A stretch of 64,000 bases of DNA from a virus. A program made the position numbers and the translations under genes. The DNA is taken from IMG/VR virus record IMGVR_UViG_3300032053_000008; one strand, given 5' to 3'. The notes beneath the pieces were generated by a model, which was given only the letters and a program-made list of their open reading frames with translations, made no database searches and was not told the origin of the DNA. Below, in pieces: positions 392 to 15,175 of the stretch (positions within the stretch are counted from its first letter, which is position 1; every line of letters starts with the position of its first letter).

Positions 392-2429
392 TGTTGTCTC
401 CTTGTGACAAAGAGCTTATCGGCGATTCACCAGAAAACTTGAATTTATTTTCATCCCATTTCCAAGTATGCATAACCGTTGATTTACCTTTAGCATGTCT
501 CTCAGCTTTTAACTGGAATCCTGTTTGTGTAGGGGTTAGCGAGTACCCCGGTTTGTTTTGCATCGCCCAAACGAAATGCCGCATTCTGGCTTCTGGTTCT
601 CCAAAACCTGAATCAACAACATGCCTGTCACCATCTTTTGACATTCTAGAATACATTTGATCAATGGTTCTAGCATGTTGCGGCATTTGTTGTTTAAGGT
701 TTGAATGCAAACCTAGTGCGGTTTTGTCAAAGTCATCTGCTATGTCTTTACGGTATACCCATACCGGCTTTTTACCCGGCTTAACAGATCTCCCAGATAC
801 ATGATTGGGGTTTTCTGGGTGAGGGGTTCCAGGAGGATCATGCGCTTCTGGTTCCCATTTACCGTTTCTTAAGTTTCTTACAACCTTTTCTAGTTCTTCT
901 AGGTCTAAAGGCTCTGGTCTCCAATCGCTAGTATGCAAAAACATTTTGAAGATGTCTTCAGATTTGACAAATTTTGGCTGTTTAGCTAGGTGATCTCGGT
1001 ACATCTCCTTTACCATGCCCATATGTTCCGACCCTAACTTTGTATGTTTAAAATTTGGGTGACTGGCATTTACTATAACTTCTTTTTCATAGTGATACTC
1101 GCTTTCACCAATCTTTCTTTTATCTTCGGATTGGGGTTGCCCTACTGCATTAGGTATATGATGAATGGCTGATTCTGGAACCCAACTTGAATATACACCG
1201 CCTAAGTGTTTTTCTTTTGCTTTTGAAAAGTTATCAATATCTTTTCCGTGTGTATCCATATTGTATTTTGTAACTTTTTTAGCAGCTTGGGTTAGTTCAT
1301 GGTCTGGTGGGTACTCATTTATCACGGCTTGCGGACTTACATCTGACCTAAATCCAACATTAAAATCTTCGGCGATTTTTGGTTTTGGTGTAAATGAAGT
1401 AAGCCCGCTAAGCTGATCATTATTTCTATGATCGTAGCCGGTCTTACCTCTAAATAAAAGGTATTCTCTTTCGTTAGTTTCCGGATTGTGGCGACTTATT
1501 GCATCTTTGTATAGCTTAACCATAGCCCTAGTTTTGGCTGGACCGGTTAAAGCTGGTACAAGGTTTCTATCTGCGGATTCATTTACCCACGTGTGTAAAA
1601 GTTTTCTGTGACCTTCTGACACATCTTTTTTTGGATTAAACGGTGCTACTCTTTTCATGGCACCTTTGGCTAATTCATCAGCCAGTCCAGAACTCTTGAG
1701 TTTGGTATAGTATTTTGGATCTTCTGACAAATGGTCGGCCACAATTTCTGAGGCCAGGTCATGGTCCCCGGTATGCTCAGCTTCAACGTCCAGACCCATT
1801 TCAAATTCATCCGGGTCAAAATCTGACCGTTTTTTGTTGTCACCCTTGCCACCTGGCAGTTCGTCTTTAGTCATTTTGTCAAAATCGAAGTTATAGGTGA
1901 CATATCTCATACCTTTGGAGGTAGGTATTTCAGAATAGTAGTTGTCAGGTTTTTGGTCAGTAGCTACGTGACCCTGGCCCGAGGCGTACATACCGGCATT
2001 AGGGCCATGCAAAAAGTGCATTTGGTGGTTATGGCCGCTAGAGCTAATAATAGAGTCTTGTCCAAGGCTATGGGCAAACTGCTTGATTTGGTCAATATTT
2101 TTAGGGTTGTGTATGATAAAGCTGTTTTCAAGTCCATCGTAATTGCCGCGTATAGCCTCAACGCTGGACCCAAGGGTATTGAGGTGTTTCATTTGCTGGT
2201 CATGGCTTAAGCCAGAACTTACTGGATGCTTTGGGTTTTCTAAGGACACGATAGCATGAGGTTGGCCGTTTAAAATAGGATGACCTTGATCTTCTGCTTT
2301 TGTAAGTTCTGGATTTTGTTCAGATCTTTGGTCTTTAAAGTTAAGCCAAGGATCTTCCGAGGCTATTTTGGGTAGCATTAAGTTTTTTATCTTTTGTTCC
2401 AGTAACTTACGCTTGTGCCAATATGTCAT
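336..2429 (-). CDS. multidomain, probably virion-packaged protein: DUF3293/SAM-lyase-like N-domain, DUF5661-like domain, ADP-ribosyltransferase-like domain
   Basis: Start moved to MTYWHK (ATG 2429, AAGGGG RBS). Motifs GNYDGLENSF..AHSLGQDSII; MGLDVEAEHT..EIVADHLSEDPKYYTKL; LFRG..LTSFT..EKEVIV (R-S-E ART pattern). Recognised by eye. Confidence 0.6.
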   Translation of the reverse strand: MTYWHKRKLLEQKIKNLMLPKIASEDPWLNFKDQRSEQNPELTKAEDQGHPILNGQPHAIVSLENPKHPVSSGLSHDQQMKHLNTLGSSVEAIRGNYDGLENSFIIHNPKNIDQIKQFAHSLGQDSIISSSGHNHQMHFLHGPNAGMYASGQGHVATDQKPDNYYSEIPTSKGMRYVTYNFDFDKMTKDELPGGKGDNKKRSDFDPDEFEMGLDVEAEHTGDHDLASEIVADHLSEDPKYYTKLKSSGLADELAKGAMKRVAPFNPKKDVSEGHRKLLHTWVNESADRNLVPALTGPAKTRAMVKLYKDAISRHNPETNEREYLLFRGKTGYDHRNNDQLSGLTSFTPKPKIAEDFNVGFRSDVSPQAVINEYPPDHELTQAAKKVTKYNMDTHGKDIDNFSKAKEKHLGGVYSSWVPESAIHHIPNAVGQPQSEDKRKIGESEYHYEKEVIVNASHPNFKHTKLGSEHMGMVKEMYRDHLAKQPKFVKSEDIFKMFLHTSDWRPEPLDLEELEKVVRNLRNGKWEPEAHDPPGTPHPENPNHVSGRSVKPGKKPVWVYRKDIADDFDKTALGLHSNLKQQMPQHARTIDQMYSRMSKDGDRHVVDSGFGEPEARMRHFVWAMQNKPGYSLTPTQTGFQLKAERHAKGKSTVMHTWKWDENKFKFSGESPISSLSQGDNNGKPKNNFMVKPNARPKA

Positions 2430-9241: not shown

Positions 9242-10064
9242 ATGGTAGTAATTATGACAAAATGGCTTAATGATCACCAAATAAATGGTACCCCTAAAGT
9301 AGACCAAGACAATTTACGTAAACGCCAAATTTTTGCTAGTGTTATCAATACCTTTGATAAACCCAAGAAAAAGCCGCGTAAACGTAAAACCACGTTGTCG
9401 CAGCACAATTTTGGAGACTGCAGATGACCAGACTAGAAAGACTTAGGAGTTTGTACTGGATGATACAACCAGATGAAAGCTATAAAGGTGGTACCGCCAT
9501 TTTAACGGCAGAAGAATTAGCAATGCTTTTGGATGTAGCTGAATTGGTTAGCAATTTAAAGATTGATTACATTACTGCAGGCGCACTAGCCAAACTTAAT
9601 GAAGAGGTTGATAATGACACCTGAAGAGGCTAAAATTGAGTGGAAAAAGCTTTTGTATAAAAGTAGAGAAATCAGTCATCGTCAGGTTCGACTTAAGATT
9701 GAACTGGAAGAGACTATTGAACAGGCAGAAAGTATATGCAAACTTGAAAGAGAAGCTTATAGAAAATATAAGGAACTAAATGAATATGGCAATAATTCTT
9801 AGTGGTATTTTTATAGTAAACATGTACGGTATGGAGTCAGATACCAGTAAAGATATCAATTACTTACTGGTAAAAGACAACTACAATATAGCCTATACCA
9901 CCACAAAAGTCTTGCCAAACAAGTTTGAAGCTGTTATCAAAGTTGAGTGTGAATCGGCCATAGCGCTGAGGCCGGTACCTAAAGTTTTTGATCAAGTTTT
10001 CCCTTGGGGTATTAAAGAACAGATCTATGTGTGTAATACCATTGATTTTAATCTAGTGCCCTAA
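9242..10064 (+). CDS. run of four small coupled hypothetical genes (9242-9427, 9424-9624, 9614-9802, 9780-10064)
   Basis: Overlapping start/stop codons with RBSs. Confidence 0.6.
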
Positions 10065-10089
10065 AGTTTACCAAAGTTTCTACCGATAA
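10062..10089 (+). promoter_or_regulatory. sigma-28 promoter
   Basis: TAAAGTTT-N12-ACCGATAA. Confidence 0.75.
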
Positions 10090-10128: not shown

Positions 10129-11493
10129 ATGAAAGTTTTGATTTTGACCGTATTGTTAGCCCTTACCGCTTGTAATGAGCCGGTAAAAATGAATGACATT
10201 ACCATCGGCACCAATGGTATTGAAAAGACCTGGGACAAAGGTGTTTCTGATGTTCGCAATGAATACGACAACACCGAAAACCGTGTAAGCGACACCTTGG
10301 CTAAGGCCAATGACGATGTGCTTGACACAGCTGCTAAAGCCAACGCTGACGCTGTTGACGAAGAGCACCGCACAACTGGACGTACCAAAGAAACTCTGGC
10401 CAAAGCTAACAGTGACGTACTGGACGAAGAAGCACGGACTACTGGCCGCGTCAAAGACACCTTGGCTAAAGCTAATGGTGACGTACTTGATACAGCCGCA
10501 CAAGCTAATGAAGATGCAGTTGAAGAAGAGCACAAGTTTAACGATCGCTCCAAGACTACTGCTAAAAAAGCCAACATGGACACGATTGCTGAAGGCGACA
10601 AACTGACTGACCGAATCGTCGGCAGCGATGACAAGACAGTTGACCAGCATGGTGACGAAATCCGTGACCTTCAGCGCCGTATGGCCTTGGTTGAGCAAGT
10701 CAATGAATCTCAGTCCATTATACTTAATTTGCATCATTTACGTCTTGGACAACTAGAAACACGCATGTCTGCTGCAGAAAAAGAACTTATTGATACAAAA
10801 GATTATTTTCTATCTGAAGTGGCTCGTTTGGATACCCAAGACGCAGATCTACAGGCAAACCTTGAAGCTGCTGTTACAGCTTTGAATTCAAGCATTGCCA
10901 GTGAATCGGCTTCCAGGGTTAGCGCTGATGCTCAAATTGTAAGCGACCTTTTAGCTGAAACTTCTAGCCGTGTATCAGCTGATAGCGCATTGCAAACACA
11001 AATCACCAGTCTTTCAGGCAGCCTGTCAACTCTGACCACAAACTTTAACAGTTTTAAGTCTGCCCAACAGTTAAACAATCTTTTCCAACAAGGACAACTT
11101 ATTGCCGCAGGTCTTGTATTGGCTAACTTGTCAAGCCGTATGAATACTGCCGAGAGTGATATTAACAGCCTTGAAACTGCTGTCTCAGCTATTCAAACTG
11201 CTGTTAGTGTTATCAACGGACAATTGGTAACCAACGCTTCAAGCATTTCAACTCTTCAGTCTTCTGTTTCTTCACTTACAACTCTGACAACAACACTGCA
11301 AACAGCCGTCAACTCTTCTTGTACTATCTCCAGAAGCACTGGAACGGTTGAGACATACAAACTGTGTGAAACAACTAACTGGGGTGGGCATTGTACTGAT
11401 TGGGACAGTTATACACTCCGTAATGCCACATTGACCCTTCAGTGCCTTGGAAGACCAGCACAAACATTGTCAAACGTTCTTTTCCGTAACTAA
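10129..11493 (+). CDS. lipoprotein with acidic repeats, long coiled coil and small C-terminal Cys-containing domain
   Basis: Lipobox LALTA-C; TLAKAN.DVLD repeats; heptad-rich Ser/Ala/Leu stalk; C-terminal Cys residues. Confidence 0.8.
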   Translation: MKVLILTVLLALTACNEPVKMNDITIGTNGIEKTWDKGVSDVRNEYDNTENRVSDTLAKANDDVLDTAAKANADAVDEEHRTTGRTKETLAKANSDVLDEEARTTGRVKDTLAKANGDVLDTAAQANEDAVEEEHKFNDRSKTTAKKANMDTIAEGDKLTDRIVGSDDKTVDQHGDEIRDLQRRMALVEQVNESQSIILNLHHLRLGQLETRMSAAEKELIDTKDYFLSEVARLDTQDADLQANLEAAVTALNSSIASESASRVSADAQIVSDLLAETSSRVSADSALQTQITSLSGSLSTLTTNFNSFKSAQQLNNLFQQGQLIAAGLVLANLSSRMNTAESDINSLETAVSAIQTAVSVINGQLVTNASSISTLQSSVSSLTTLTTTLQTAVNSSCTISRSTGTVETYKLCETTNWGGHCTDWDSYTLRNATLTLQCLGRPAQTLSNVLFRN

Positions 11494-11545
11494 GCGAAAC
11501 AGGCCAATCGGCCTGTCTACAGGTGGAACCTGTACTGATGAGCTT
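11482..11545 (+). ncRNA. type II hammerhead ribozyme
   Basis: AAGC-GAAA-CAGGCC(aatc)GGCCTG-TC^-TACAGG(tggaa)CCTGTA-CTGATGA-GCTT: full core, GUC cleavage triplet, stems I-III; loop I can pair with upstream TTCCG. Confidence 0.92.
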
Positions 11546-11604
11546 TAAGAGATTTGTTCACAAAATTGGTCATTTAAGCAAAAAAACGCCAAAATAATAA
11601 ACAC

Positions 11605-11631
11605 TAAAGTTTTTCACCGAAAAGCCGATAA
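11605..11631 (+). promoter_or_regulatory. sigma-28 promoter
   Basis: TAAAGTTT-N11-GCCGATAA. Confidence 0.9.
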
Positions 11632-11655
11632 GGTTCGGGTAACCAGGAGGATGCC

Positions 11656-13182
11656 ATGAAACTTTTCCCATACCAAATCGAAACCATACAAAACTTTATG
11701 GACCATGACGCCAGCGGTGACCCTAAGGTACCTCTAATAGCTCTGGCTACTGGCGCGGGTAAGGGCCGAGTAGCTGTTGAGATTATGTCTGGACTGGTTG
11801 ACCAAAACCCGAAAGAAAGGTTTCTGGTTTTACCGCACGCACAGACAAACCTTAGGTCTAACTTTGTCAAAGAGATTAAGAAGTGGGTTAAGCCGAACCT
11901 TAAGTTCCTAGAAATCAGCCCAGACTCCGAGCCAACGCCAGCCCAAATAGCTGAAGCTAATGTTGTGGTGTGTTTGCCTCAAACGGCTAGGAACCTTTTG
12001 CCATATCTAGGTAATTTTACTAGGATTTTGGTAGATGAAGCTCACGAAAGATACGCCAAAGACAACGAAAACAAAAAGGAATACACCCAGATACGCCAAG
12101 GCTTGCCGAAAGCCAAGGAAATCCTCCTTACCGCGTCCCATGGGGAGTTTAAAAATAGCCACTACAAAAAGTTTACTGTGTCTTTACTGGAAGCTTATAG
12201 TCATGGCACCGTGTCGGATGTGTCACTGGTAGGCGTAAACACCAAATGGGATTTTACAGTCAAAGACTTCAACCAATCCGGCGAAATCGTAAAAGAAGTC
12301 AACATAACGCCACAAAAAGTGGTAGAAGCTTTGCATGACCTGGTTCTCGAAATGGACTCCTGGCGCGGCATTGGGTCCAACAACAAAACCACCAGAGCGA
12401 TCAAGGGTAGCTTTGTGAAAGCCATAAAGCGGCTATCAGGTGACTTCCCTAAGACGGTTATTGCCACCAGAAATATCGACATGGCGGAACAGGTTTATAA
12501 GTTCTTTATAGAGCAAAATGGCTTGGCTGGTCAGGTCATTATGTCGCATAGCAAAAACGACGACGACCGTTTGTTAGAGTTTAATGGAAACGACAAACTG
12601 AAAGTTCTTATAGTTGTCAACAGGGCTAACCTTGGGTTTGACGCTGAAAACGTGATGTGCGTAGTGGATATGACCGGAACCACCAATGAAAACCGTATGA
12701 TGCAGCTTATTGGCCGAGCTGCTAGGGTCCGCCGTGACTCAAAAGGTCAGCCAATCAAAGACGAAAAAGCTTACTTCAAAGTCATGCCCCAGAACATGGA
12801 AATGTATACCAGGGCTCTTTTGCAGTTGTCAGCCCTACTTACTATCAAAAGGTACTACGCTGACTACGAAGGCCGCCAGCCGCTTAAAAAGCAGATTACG
12901 GTAGCCCGTAAAAAGAATGCAATTGCGCAATTTAATGGCACCAGACCTAAAAAGGAAAACGACGGAATATATATACCGGTGCCAAACAGGCTGTCGGATT
13001 TGATTGTTGGAGCAGACCAGTTTTTCACAGAATATGCTAGGACCCACGGCGAATACCTTGAAGTATTTACCAAGACATCCTTAAGTGAAGTAAAGAACTC
13101 TAAGGTTGTTGGAGATGTTGGATTAACACCAAAAGAAATCATTGAATATGCTGAAAATAAATTTGGCAGAACCGTTAGCTAA
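11656..13182 (+). CDS. superfamily 2 (DEAH / type III Res-like) helicase
   Basis: Q motif LFPYQ, Walker A ATGAGKG, DEAH, LTAS, NLGFD, QLIGRAAR. Confidence 0.88.
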   Translation: MKLFPYQIETIQNFMDHDASGDPKVPLIALATGAGKGRVAVEIMSGLVDQNPKERFLVLPHAQTNLRSNFVKEIKKWVKPNLKFLEISPDSEPTPAQIAEANVVVCLPQTARNLLPYLGNFTRILVDEAHERYAKDNENKKEYTQIRQGLPKAKEILLTASHGEFKNSHYKKFTVSLLEAYSHGTVSDVSLVGVNTKWDFTVKDFNQSGEIVKEVNITPQKVVEALHDLVLEMDSWRGIGSNNKTTRAIKGSFVKAIKRLSGDFPKTVIATRNIDMAEQVYKFFIEQNGLAGQVIMSHSKNDDDRLLEFNGNDKLKVLIVVNRANLGFDAENVMCVVDMTGTTNENRMMQLIGRAARVRRDSKGQPIKDEKAYFKVMPQNMEMYTRALLQLSALLTIKRYYADYEGRQPLKKQITVARKKNAIAQFNGTRPKKENDGIYIPVPNRLSDLIVGADQFFTEYARTHGEYLEVFTKTSLSEVKNSKVVGDVGLTPKEIIEYAENKFGRTVS

Positions 13183-13206
13183 AGTTTTCCTGGTTTTGGC
13201 CGATAA
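13180..13206 (+). promoter_or_regulatory. sigma-28 promoter inside an 80-nt insert between helicase and repeat gene
   Basis: TAAAGTTT-N11-GCCGATAA. Confidence 0.88.
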
Positions 13207-13229
13207 AGTTTTGGTAACCGGGAGATCAT

Positions 13230-14678
13230 ATGTTGTACGTATTTGAAAACACAGACGACTGGAAAAAGAAAGACCCAGAATCATACCGGGCTGCTTTAAA
13301 AATTGGTAAAGTGAGAGAAATTGCACTAGAGATTTGTAAAAGAAATCCCAGCAGCTCTGACATTAAAAAAACTCAACTCCTTGAAATGGCTAGAAATGGT
13401 GACAAGAGACCCAGTCAAAGAACTTATCCATTAGGCACGGCTATTGGTAGCTACACAATAAAAGGTAGCGACACTTTTGACGAAGATTTTACCAAACAAA
13501 TCAAAGAAATAGCACCAGATTGGTTTGTAAGTCGATCTAATACAGCTAATACCAAAAAAGCTCAACTCCTTGAAATAGCTAGAAATGGAGAACCGAGACC
13601 CCATCAAACAAAACATTCATTAGGTAGATCTCTTTGTAGCTATACAACAAAAGGTAGGGCGATTTTTGACGAAGATTTTACCAAACAAATCAAAGAAATA
13701 GCACCACATTGGTTTGAAAATACGGCTAATACCAAAAAAGCTCAATTACTTGAAATGGCTAGAAATGGTGACAAAAAACCTCATAGGGAAACCGTACCGG
13801 GCACAGCTCTTCATTCCTACACAACAAAAGGTAGAGACACTTTTGACGAAGATTTTACCAAAGAACTCAAAGAAATAGCACCAGATTGGTTTGTAAGTCG
13901 ATCTAATACAGCTAATACCAAAAAAGCTCAACTCCTTGAAATAGCTAGAAATGGAGAACCGAGACCCCATCAAACAAAACATTCATTAGGCACAGCTCTT
14001 GGTAGCTACACAATAAAAGGTAGCGAGATTTTTGACGAAGATTTTACCAAACAAATCAAAGAAATAGCACCAGATTGGTTTGTAAGTCGATCTAATACAG
14101 CTAATACCAAAAAAGCTCAACTCCTTGAAATAGCTAGAAATGGAGAACCGAGACCCCATCAAACAAAACATTCATTAGGTAGATCTCTTTGTAGCTATAC
14201 AACAAAAGGTAGGGCGATTTTTGACGAAGATTTTACCAAACAAATCAAAGAAATAGCACCACATTGGTTTGAAAATACGGCTAATACCAAAAAAGCTCAA
14301 TTACTTGAAATGGCTAGAAATGGTGACAAAAAACCTCATAGGGAAACCGTACCGGGCACAGCTCTTCATTCCTACACAACAAAAGGTAGAGACACTTTTG
14401 ACGAAGATTTTACCAAAGAACTCAAAGAAATAGCACCAGATTGGTTTGTAAGTCGATCTAATACAGCTAATACCAAAAAAGCTCAACTCCTTGAAATAGC
14501 TAGAAATGGAGAACCGAGACCCCATCAAACAAAACATTCATTAGGCACAGCTCTTGGTAGCTACACAATAAAAGGTAGCGAGATTTTTGACGAAGATTTT
14601 ACCAAACAAATCAAAGAAATAGCACCACACTGGTTTAACTCAAAAAAGAGTTCAAGTTTCCCGCAAAAAAGCCGATAA
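13230..14678 (+). CDS. tandem-repeat protein, 7 x 60-63 aa helicase-associated (HA)-like helical repeats
   Basis: Unit KKAQLLE.ARNG..P....LG..L.SYT.KG...FDEDFTKQIKEIAP.WF. Confidence 0.8.
   Translation: MLYVFENTDDWKKKDPESYRAALKIGKVREIALEICKRNPSSSDIKKTQLLEMARNGDKRPSQRTYPLGTAIGSYTIKGSDTFDEDFTKQIKEIAPDWFVSRSNTANTKKAQLLEIARNGEPRPHQTKHSLGRSLCSYTTKGRAIFDEDFTKQIKEIAPHWFENTANTKKAQLLEMARNGDKKPHRETVPGTALHSYTTKGRDTFDEDFTKELKEIAPDWFVSRSNTANTKKAQLLEIARNGEPRPHQTKHSLGTALGSYTIKGSEIFDEDFTKQIKEIAPDWFVSRSNTANTKKAQLLEIARNGEPRPHQTKHSLGRSLCSYTTKGRAIFDEDFTKQIKEIAPHWFENTANTKKAQLLEMARNGDKKPHRETVPGTALHSYTTKGRDTFDEDFTKELKEIAPDWFVSRSNTANTKKAQLLEIARNGEPRPHQTKHSLGTALGSYTIKGSEIFDEDFTKQIKEIAPHWFNSKKSSSFPQKSR
13364..14637 (+). 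repeat. coding tandem repeats (180-189 nt units) with a 555-nt higher-order duplication
   Basis: Antisense ORFs recur at +555 (13431/13986; 13746/14301); units 2-4 are repeated as 5-7. Confidence 0.9.
14652..14678 (+). promoter_or_regulatory. sigma-28 promoter
   Basis: TCAAGTTT-N11-GCCGATAA; the -10 supplies the upstream stop codon. Confidence 0.82.
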
Positions 14679-14727
14679 GGATATTGTAAGTAGTAGTTAA
14701 CAACATTTCTTCAAGAAAGGAAGAAAT

Positions 14728-15123
14728 ATGAAAAAGGCTCTGGATAAATCAGGTACAGTTTACGCGCAAACGAACAAGGACAACTACCTTGAAAAAATGT
14801 CTAAAGACCCGTCATCGCGGTTTTTTAAACAAAAAGCCATTGACTCAGATTTCGTCAATGAAGTTAAAGAATTAAGGCCGGAATGGTTTGGTCCTAGTAT
14901 TGTGTCTGGTCTTGCTAGAACTGCAGCCGGATTTGATGCCACCCTCTTAAAGGTTTTTACGGACAAAGGTAAGTTTATCGGGTATACTGGTATGGCTAGA
15001 AGAGGTTCTGTTGTCTTCAAGGACGTTAACTGGACAGCTGAAGGCAAGGCTTACTTGGGTGAGCGTAAATCTACGAATGTCCCGTGTTTAAACATAAACA
15101 CAAAAGACATAGTTCCGTTTTGA
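14728..15123 (+). CDS. hypothetical protein with one degenerate copy of the upstream repeat
   Basis: DSDFVNEVKELRPEWF resembles DEDFTKQIKEIAPDWF. Confidence 0.75.
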   Translation: MKKALDKSGTVYAQTNKDNYLEKMSKDPSSRFFKQKAIDSDFVNEVKELRPEWFGPSIVSGLARTAAGFDATLLKVFTDKGKFIGYTGMARRGSVVFKDVNWTAEGKAYLGERKSTNVPCLNINTKDIVPF

Positions 15124-15147
15124 TTTTCTAGAACTCCGAGGATTTAT

Positions 15148-15175
15148 GGCAGTATTATTAAATACTGCCTTTTTT
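15148..15175 (+). terminator. Rho-independent terminator
   Basis: GGCAGTATT/AATACTGCC stem followed by T6. Confidence 0.85.

Follow-up and report, generated by a model that had tools for sequence, protein, structure and literature searches.

What ends the message of a phage lipoprotein gene, and what sets that message apart from the gene that follows, are questions raised by one junction in the IMG/VR virus record IMGVR_UViG_3300032053_000008, of which a stretch of 64,000 nucleotides (nt), here called the window, was analyzed. The window belongs to a tailed phage, as it encodes tail fiber and baseplate proteins, and its + strand harbors a gene for a lipoprotein of 454 amino acids (aa) (10129..11493, from the list of open reading frames [ORFs] and the translation), followed by a superfamily 2 helicase gene (11656..13182). 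At the stop codon of the lipoprotein gene lies a 54-nt type II hammerhead ribozyme (11492-11545, + strand). On balance, we favor the view that this compact ribozyme constitutes the 3′ trailer of the lipoprotein gene, where it would provide a hairpin-capped end to the messenger RNA (mRNA) without stopping the polymerase.

A type II hammerhead ribozyme at the lipoprotein stop codon

The segment from 11480 to 11550 reads, as RNA, UUUUCCGUAAC-UAA-GC-GAAA-CAGGCC-AAUC-GGCCUG-UC-UACAGG-UGGAA-CCUGUA-CUGAUGA-GCUU. The UAA stop codon of the lipoprotein gene (11491..11493) contributes its last two bases to the outer two pairs of stem II, which is open and comprises 4 base pairs (bp) (AAGC, 11492-11495, with GCUU, 11542-11545). 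Reading along the + strand, G12 A13 A14 (11496-11498; GAAA being 11496-11499) precede the 7-bp stem III ((A)CAGGCC, 11499-11505, with GGCCUG(U), 11510-11516; loop AAUC, 11506-11509), whose base is formed by the A15.1-U16.1 pair (A11499-U11516), and are followed beyond it by the 6-bp stem I (UACAGG, 11518-11523, with CCUGUA, 11529-11534; loop UGGAA, 11524-11528) and by the core segment C3-A9, CUGAUGA (11535-11541). Self-cleavage is predicted at 11517..11518, 3′ of C17 (C11517, the end of GUC), from the position of H17 in the hammerhead core. The catalytic core is complete at 11492-11545, with C3-A9, G12 A13 A14, the A15.1-U16.1 pair, and an H17 that is not G; stems I and III are closed by loops and stem II is open, as in the three-helix type II layout, and, because the 5′ and 3′ ends of the RNA both fall within stem II, the topology is that of type II. 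An earlier note on this locus had given the positions of the stems, of GAAA, GUC, and CUGAUGA, of the stop codon, and of a UUCCG segment considered below, all of which were found to be correct on re-reading.

The Rfam model RF02276 (Hammerhead_II) matched 11492-11549 end to end (model positions 1-66) with 36.2 bits, corresponding to an E value of 1.1e-3 for the whole window on both strands and of 4.6e-6 locally. The Rfam search which the earlier note had suggested as a check thus returned a match, yet one that lies 0.8 bit below the gathering score of 37, so that a default Rfam run reports nothing and the ribozyme is seen only in E-value mode. The gathering score is an annotation cutoff rather than a biological feature, and the shortfall is attributed to the short loop I and to the missing 3′-tail columns. 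All four ribozymes of the family described below that were tested score under this value (window 11492-11549, 36.2 bits; L084:4287-4343, 35.4 bits; L001:12209-12263, 34.3 bits; L088:1350-1408, 31.3 bits), and such ribozymes therefore escape routine Rfam annotation. With the family covariance model, R1, the window ribozyme scores 81.6 bits, and it is the sole ribozyme-like match in the 64 kb by either the E-value mode of Rfam or the family model. Further CUGAUGA sites in the window (3348 on the + strand, 1681 on the − strand, and others) are not hammerheads by either model, and no transfer RNAs were found in the 64-kb window. The minimum-free-energy structure predicted by RNAfold contains stems III and I. 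As judged from sequence and model scores, 11492-11545 is a genuine type II hammerhead, matched beyond chance.

Conservation of the fold in a family of lipoprotein loci

The family set was assembled from a protein search with the lipoprotein, which yielded ten further homologues, from the contigs that carry them, and from one metagenome pattern scan. The same ribozyme was present at seven further loci (L084, L088, L090, L095, L098, L099, and L001), in six of which (all but L095) a lipoprotein homologue lies directly upstream. These six homologues show 28 to 57% protein identity and bear at least six different C-terminal endings, the ribozyme following directly upon the stop codon in every case: ...LFRN* (that is, ...FRN*) in the window, ...FRN* in L084, ...FAW* in L088, ...TPSY* in L090, ...EDGY* in L098, ...PTED* in L099, and ...SSPQ* in L001. 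The last of these loci, a metagenome contig of 159.5 kb, carries its type II hammerhead at 12209-12260 (34.3 bits with RF02276), not adjacent to the helicase homologue of that contig but directly after the stop of a lipoprotein homologue (28% identity, E value of 6e-30) whose N-terminal part, including the lipobox, is located before a scaffold gap. L001 was left out when R1 was built, and it scores 40.9 bits with that model (E value of 1e-10).

Across the eight sequences and 17 pairs, standard pairing is seen in every one of the 135 pair cells (100%). In eight of the 17 pairs both sides have changed, stem I contributing four of these pairs and stems II and III two each, a level of covariation which was reached by none of 500 shuffles and which was lost when the partner columns were slid by 1 to 3 positions. 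GAA, GUC, and CUGAUGA are invariant in all eight ribozymes. Pairs were counted both by hand, anchored on the invariant core, and from an Infernal alignment of the eight ribozymes, and the two counts agreed; MAFFT misplaced L001, and the core-anchored parsing and the Infernal alignment were used in its place. On this evidence, the ribozyme fold is almost certainly under selection.

The seventh locus, L095:1792-1845 (− strand), bears a near-identical ribozyme, including the loop UGGAA, behind an ORF without detectable similarity to the lipoprotein family; just 69 codons of this ORF are on the contig, and it may be a different gene or one more case of an exchanged C-terminal domain. Among the nine matches of the metagenome pattern, four (L091-L093 and L096) proved to be hairpins without the core, and L094 and L097 contain a different, pseudoknot-type hammerhead.

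Terminator-like hairpins in homologues without the ribozyme

Four homologous loci lack the ribozyme, no hammerhead being detected anywhere in them with the family model (L083, L085, L086, and L087). At the same spot after the stop codon, L083 and L085 possess an 11-bp GC-rich hairpin followed by UUUUU(U)AUAUUU, and L087 possesses a 12-bp hairpin followed by UUUUCC; L086 has neither ribozyme nor hairpin, and its next gene starts 15 nt on. At the window junction, stem III is followed by CUACAGG rather than by U's, so that the GC-rich hairpin with U-tract that characterizes an intrinsic terminator is absent. No terminator-like site was found on the + strand from 11493 to 15148, an interval that includes the whole region from the lipoprotein stop to the helicase, which bears out the earlier note's remark that no intrinsic terminator is visible here. 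The 110-nt spacer before the helicase is no better structured than shuffles, the segment tested (11546-11660) giving a z of +0.22. The unit of ORF 14728-15123 ends in a canonical terminator (15148-15169), located directly before a degenerate copy of the promoter motif described in the following section.

Ribozyme and intrinsic (rho-independent) terminator resemble each other in their position after the stop, as seen in L083, L085, and L087, and in that both leave a stable GC-rich hairpin end. They differ in that an intrinsic terminator releases the polymerase, whereas the ribozyme cuts the RNA and transcription continues, and in the chemistry of the end, a 3′-OH U-tract in the former and a 2′,3′-cyclic phosphate in the latter. 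A tree of the N-terminal 200 residues requires two changes of the ribozyme/terminator label, of which well-supported branches force one; the tree is unrooted and too weakly resolved to give the order of events.

Promoter motifs and genes downstream of the ribozyme

A perfect copy of the motif TAAAGTTT-N11-GCCGATAA, which we take to be the sigma-28 (FliA) consensus, was located by pattern search at 11605..11631 (+ strand), 59 nt downstream of the ribozyme and 24 nt upstream of the helicase start. With at most one mismatch, this motif occurs 12 times in the window against 0.42 expected, and none of 100 shuffles reached 12. Such enrichment suggests that the phage uses a flagellar-type sigma factor, either that of the host or its own. 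A variant, TAAAGTTT ... ACCGATAA, with a spacer one base longer and one mismatch, was read from the sequence at 10062..10089 (+ strand), approximately 40 nt before the lipoprotein start, and stands outside the pattern behind the enrichment count. The order in the window is, therefore, promoter motif, lipoprotein gene, hammerhead, promoter motif, and helicase gene. The helicase homologue of L001 is also preceded by a sigma-28-type motif, and a sigma-70 promoter scan of the interval from ribozyme to helicase gave no match. The 12 sites in the window are distributed between 2463 and 49704 (for example, 11605-11631, 13180-13206, and 14652-14678) and mostly lie just upstream of accessory or early genes.

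The gene that follows the ribozyme differs between loci, being a helicase in the window and L090, AAA_28 in L084, Bac_transf in L088 and L098, and small ORFs in L099 and L001. Because the upstream gene is constant while the downstream gene varies, it is the lipoprotein gene, at its 3′ end, with which the ribozyme travels. A decayed hammerhead (26 bits with the family model) was observed in L088 at 2080-2122 (+ strand), located after the Bac_transf gene; it reads AAGC and then CAAA in place of GAAA, has lost stem III, and retains CUGAUGAGCUU. The Bac_transf gene of this locus sits between the intact ribozyme and sequence which in L084 directly follows the ribozyme. These sequences suggest that a gene cassette entered at the ribozyme and that the copy thus made redundant has been decaying.

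Stop-codon adjacency among phage hammerheads

The earlier note had presented the ribozyme as fused to the stop codon of the lipoprotein gene, and such abutment turns out not to be special to this gene. A pattern for this flavor of the core recovered at least 80 loci from IMG/VR, with 75 distinct examples among the matches listed; these examples are not phylogenetically independent. In 19 of these 75 listed examples, the last base of the upstream stop coincides with the G of GCGAAAC. Of the 70 listed examples with an ORF of 50 codons or more upstream, 44 have their stop between −6 and +1, and others cluster at −12. The distance from the ribozyme to the start of the following ORF is usually 12 to 33 nt in the listed examples. 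The literature search found no paper that states this stop-codon habit. The compact form, with a stem II of 4 to 5 bp and a short loop I, is shared by many of the hammerheads listed and is a common subtype rather than a new one. In L050, L055, and L064 of IMG/VR, paired type II hammerheads approximately 380 nt apart flank single small ORFs, which is the known clustered arrangement.

A proposed pseudoknot with the coding sequence

It had further been proposed that loop I (UGGAA) pairs with UUCCG (11482..11486, + strand) within the last codons, stabilizing the ribozyme by a pseudoknot of the type II kind, so that translating ribosomes would tune cleavage. Five pairs are possible, one of them G-U, and L084 likewise has GGAA and UUCC. 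Independently of any pseudoknot, the stop codon is inside stem II, and a terminating ribosome would, given the size of its mRNA channel, hide stem II and the 5′ part of the core; with the last two bases of the stop in stem II, we infer that folding and translation termination cannot coincide. The pairing itself is, however, highly doubtful. UUCCG encodes the Phe-Arg of the conserved ...FRN* ending and is best read as these codons rather than as an RNA element, the same UUCCG being present in L083, which has no ribozyme. A Watson-Crick match of at least four pairs is confined to the window and L084, both of which end in ...FRN*. The partner is absent from the other six ribozyme loci: L088, L099, and L090 (loop GGAA) and L095 (UGGAA), with the endings FAW*, TED*, PSY*, and QSY*, respectively, offer at most three Watson-Crick pairs in the 25 nt upstream, while L098 (loop AAUGAG) and L001 (loop UUAAU) have no upstream partner. 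No covariation between loop and flank was seen among the family ribozymes, and, by our estimate, chance alone would supply a complement of 4 nt within some 25 nt to either side in roughly one of eight cases. A shuffle test of loop I against its flanks in 90 phage hammerheads revealed no excess on either side; as the known 3′ pseudoknot was also missed, this test has no power and was not relied on.

Nor would such a contact be of the published kind, as in the type II pseudoknot the partner of loop I is the 3′ tail and not the 5′ side (PMC3088659). Most type II members have this pseudoknot, which is common without defining the class. The 25 nt after stem II, in the window and in all its relatives, offer loop I no more than three Watson-Crick pairs. 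According to Perreault et al., many hammerheads are without such tertiary contacts (PMC3088659). The GGAA loop fits the GNRA tetraloop pattern, which may be the reason for its retention.

Proposed role and alternative explanations

Hammerhead cleavage 3′ of H17 leaves a 2′,3′-cyclic phosphate and a 5′-OH. In the mechanism that we propose, the ribozyme would be transcribed as the 3′ trailer of the lipoprotein gene, and, once the polymerase had passed 11545, the RNA would fold and cut after C11517. The 5′ product would keep its UAA and extend for 24 nt beyond it, closing with the GC-rich hairpin of stem III and the cyclic phosphate on C11517, while the read-through RNA would begin with a 5′-OH on U11518 and the stem I hairpin. 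With the stop codon and 24 nt retained, translation termination would be unaffected, and the end would be protected as by a terminator hairpin. As the polymerase would continue, downstream expression would not be cut off but only uncoupled at the level of RNA, the lipoprotein message being separated from a helicase unit with its own sigma-28-type promoter at 11605-11631.

Cleavage in vivo is judged likely. For three type II hammerheads located beside phage-like genes of Desulfovibrio vulgaris, cleavage has been demonstrated both in cells and in vitro (cyPhyRNA-seq, PMC8782182), and, different as they are from the window ribozyme in organism and sequence, they may be regarded as the best precedent for activity of such elements in vivo. 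That 3′-end formation or insulation is the main role of the ribozyme is given about an even chance, a role suggested by the terminator-like hairpin at the same spot in homologues and by the helicase promoter motif downstream of the ribozyme. The earlier note's claim that self-cleavage defines the mRNA 3′ end and insulates the helicase unit fits these same two observations, the effect on mRNA ends and stability being one that we infer.

Several observations weigh against this proposal. The loop I/3′-tail pseudoknot is critical for fast cleavage at low Mg2+ in a tested type II example (PMC3088659), and, because it is missing here, the window ribozyme could be slow. The 4-bp stem II is absent from the RNAfold minimum-free-energy structure, and the Rfam score falls short of the gathering score. 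The interchange with terminators rests on three loci, and the tree needs just one or two switches. The promoter motifs at 13180 and 14652 overlap upstream stops without a terminator or ribozyme, so that the phage evidently tolerates read-through elsewhere. In L088, L098, L099, L095, and L001, moreover, the next start is approximately 12 to 20 nt on, without a promoter; as the next gene thus follows at once in five of eight loci, intercistronic 3′-end formation is a better description than termination.

The possibility that the ribozyme is a chance match or an inactive relic might draw on its score below the Rfam gathering value and on its want of a tertiary contact of known type, but an E value of 1e-3 in the window, seven further conserved copies, fully standard pairing with eight compensatory pairs, and an intact core leave it a negligible probability, and from these sequence comparisons it is excluded for practical purposes. 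The ribozyme might instead mainly serve the downstream gene, the 5′-OH leader, with its stem I hairpin and short spacer, setting translation or stability as a natural insulator. A ribosome-binding site and start within 12 to 33 nt, as found in five of eight family loci and most of the 75 listed IMG/VR examples, would suit such a function, which we nevertheless consider unlikely: within the family it is the downstream gene that changes and the upstream gene that stays, the window helicase starts 110 nt past the ribozyme and has its own promoter motif 3′ of it, so that its main transcripts would exclude the ribozyme, and, at the Bac_transf insertion of L088, the ribozyme next to the lipoprotein gene stayed intact and the downstream copy decayed.

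The same insertion, flanked by an intact and a decayed copy, can also be read in terms of DNA, the 54 nt acting chiefly as a boundary between the modules of mosaic phage genomes, or as a linker for recombination, and any ribozyme activity being incidental or selfish, as might be expected where a near-identical ribozyme stands between C-terminal domains and downstream genes that both differ widely. This explanation is improbable in our estimation, as compensatory changes in all three stems and an invariant core indicate selection on an RNA fold, for which a DNA linker has no need, and as the decayed copy of L088 demonstrates that the sequence is lost when not needed.

The lipoprotein and helicase genes

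The N terminus of the lipoprotein, MKVLILTVLLALTAC, is a signal peptide with the lipobox LALTAC, followed by repeats and a coiled coil and then by a Cys-containing C-terminal domain; no real Pfam domain was found in the protein. An N-terminal lipobox is present in all homologues (P0033-P0042), which makes the label of phage lipoprotein given in the earlier note a fair one. The family (window 10129-11493 and P0033-P0042) is strongly mosaic, its N-terminal groups and C-terminal domains recombining, as in P0034, which shares its N terminus with the window protein and its C terminus with P0039, and collagen repeats occur in some members. In sequence features, the lipoprotein resembles a lipid-anchored, fiber-like surface protein. 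The C terminus of P0034 (...LSKN*), a protein of the ENA contig ERZ27247683, is unlike that of the window protein, and a 162-nt gap separates its gene from that of a 508-aa helicase, as in the window.

The helicase of the window (ResIII and Helicase_C by domain search) is preceded by AGGAGG at 11645-11650 (+ strand). It is at most approximately 24% identical to known phage helicases, and its homologue on L001 is 70% identical. No phage in INPHARED has DNA similarity to the window, and a search of IMG/VR for related loci with either flanking protein found no relative. ORF 13230-14678 contains, at 13365-14636 (+ strand), a tandem repeat of 189 nt (63 aa) in 6.9 copies that are approximately 80% alike. 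The helicase of L001 (756 aa) carries a C-terminal part with repeats as a fusion, whereas the window has distinct genes for helicase and repeat protein, and a promoter motif covers the stop codon of the former. A strong match to HEARO RNA, an RNA associated with IscB/HNH nucleases, was also observed in L001 (2303-2545, − strand; 120 bits, the gathering score being 83), a phage-like contig, where it lies beside a 1,525-aa DUF5661 gene.

Relation to known hammerheads and significance

Type II hammerheads (RF02276) of bacteria, prophages, and phages were described in 2011 (Perreault et al. 2011, PMC3088659), with phage intergenic examples named in PaP3 and Bcep176 (PMC3088659), and the window ribozyme shares with them the same core, the permuted topology with an open stem II, and the phage intergenic setting between codirectional genes. 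It departs from the type II consensus in being without the loop I/3′-tail pseudoknot, in having a stem II of 4 bp rather than 2 to 3 bp, and in a loop I of 4 to 5 nt in the family (PMC3088659), departures that lower the scores of the family with RF02276. Clustered hammerheads flank genes in prophage operons of A. tumefaciens (ardA), C. scindens, and A. caulinodans (PMC3088659); as is proposed for the window ribozyme, those elements cleave themselves within long phage transcripts, from which they cut single cistrons, but the window has one ribozyme in 64 kb, and this ribozyme belongs to the 3′ terminus of a single gene family and to no array. The processing of polycistronic RNA into pieces of different stability is a standing proposal (PMC6765202), and on the function of bacterial and phage hammerheads it has been stated that "additional work is needed" (PMC6765202) and that their "roles remain elusive" (PMC13725137).

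A likeness may also be drawn to RiboJ, a synthetic insulator derived from a satellite-RNA hammerhead, in that a self-cleaving ribozyme frees gene expression from its transcript context; RiboJ is, however, engineered and placed 5′ of a gene. The window ribozyme is a conserved member of a kind known since 2011 and not a new kind of element, and what its exchange for terminator-like hairpins and its place in a promoter-bounded unit reveal about function is useful but modest. A clean natural comparison is provided by one gene family whose members end, depending on the phage, in a hammerhead or in a terminator-like hairpin, and, as this comparison sits in a unit bounded by recognizable promoters, 3′-end formation without termination becomes testable. 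We tentatively suggest that the hammerhead may be, in this phage lineage, a portable 3′-end cassette, functionally interchangeable with an intrinsic terminator and kept at the lipoprotein stop while the C-terminal domain and the downstream genes are swapped, and that it may also serve as an insertion junction, as for Bac_transf in L088. If this is true, phage hammerheads would amount to terminators past which the polymerase can continue, and the question of their function would receive a concrete, testable answer.

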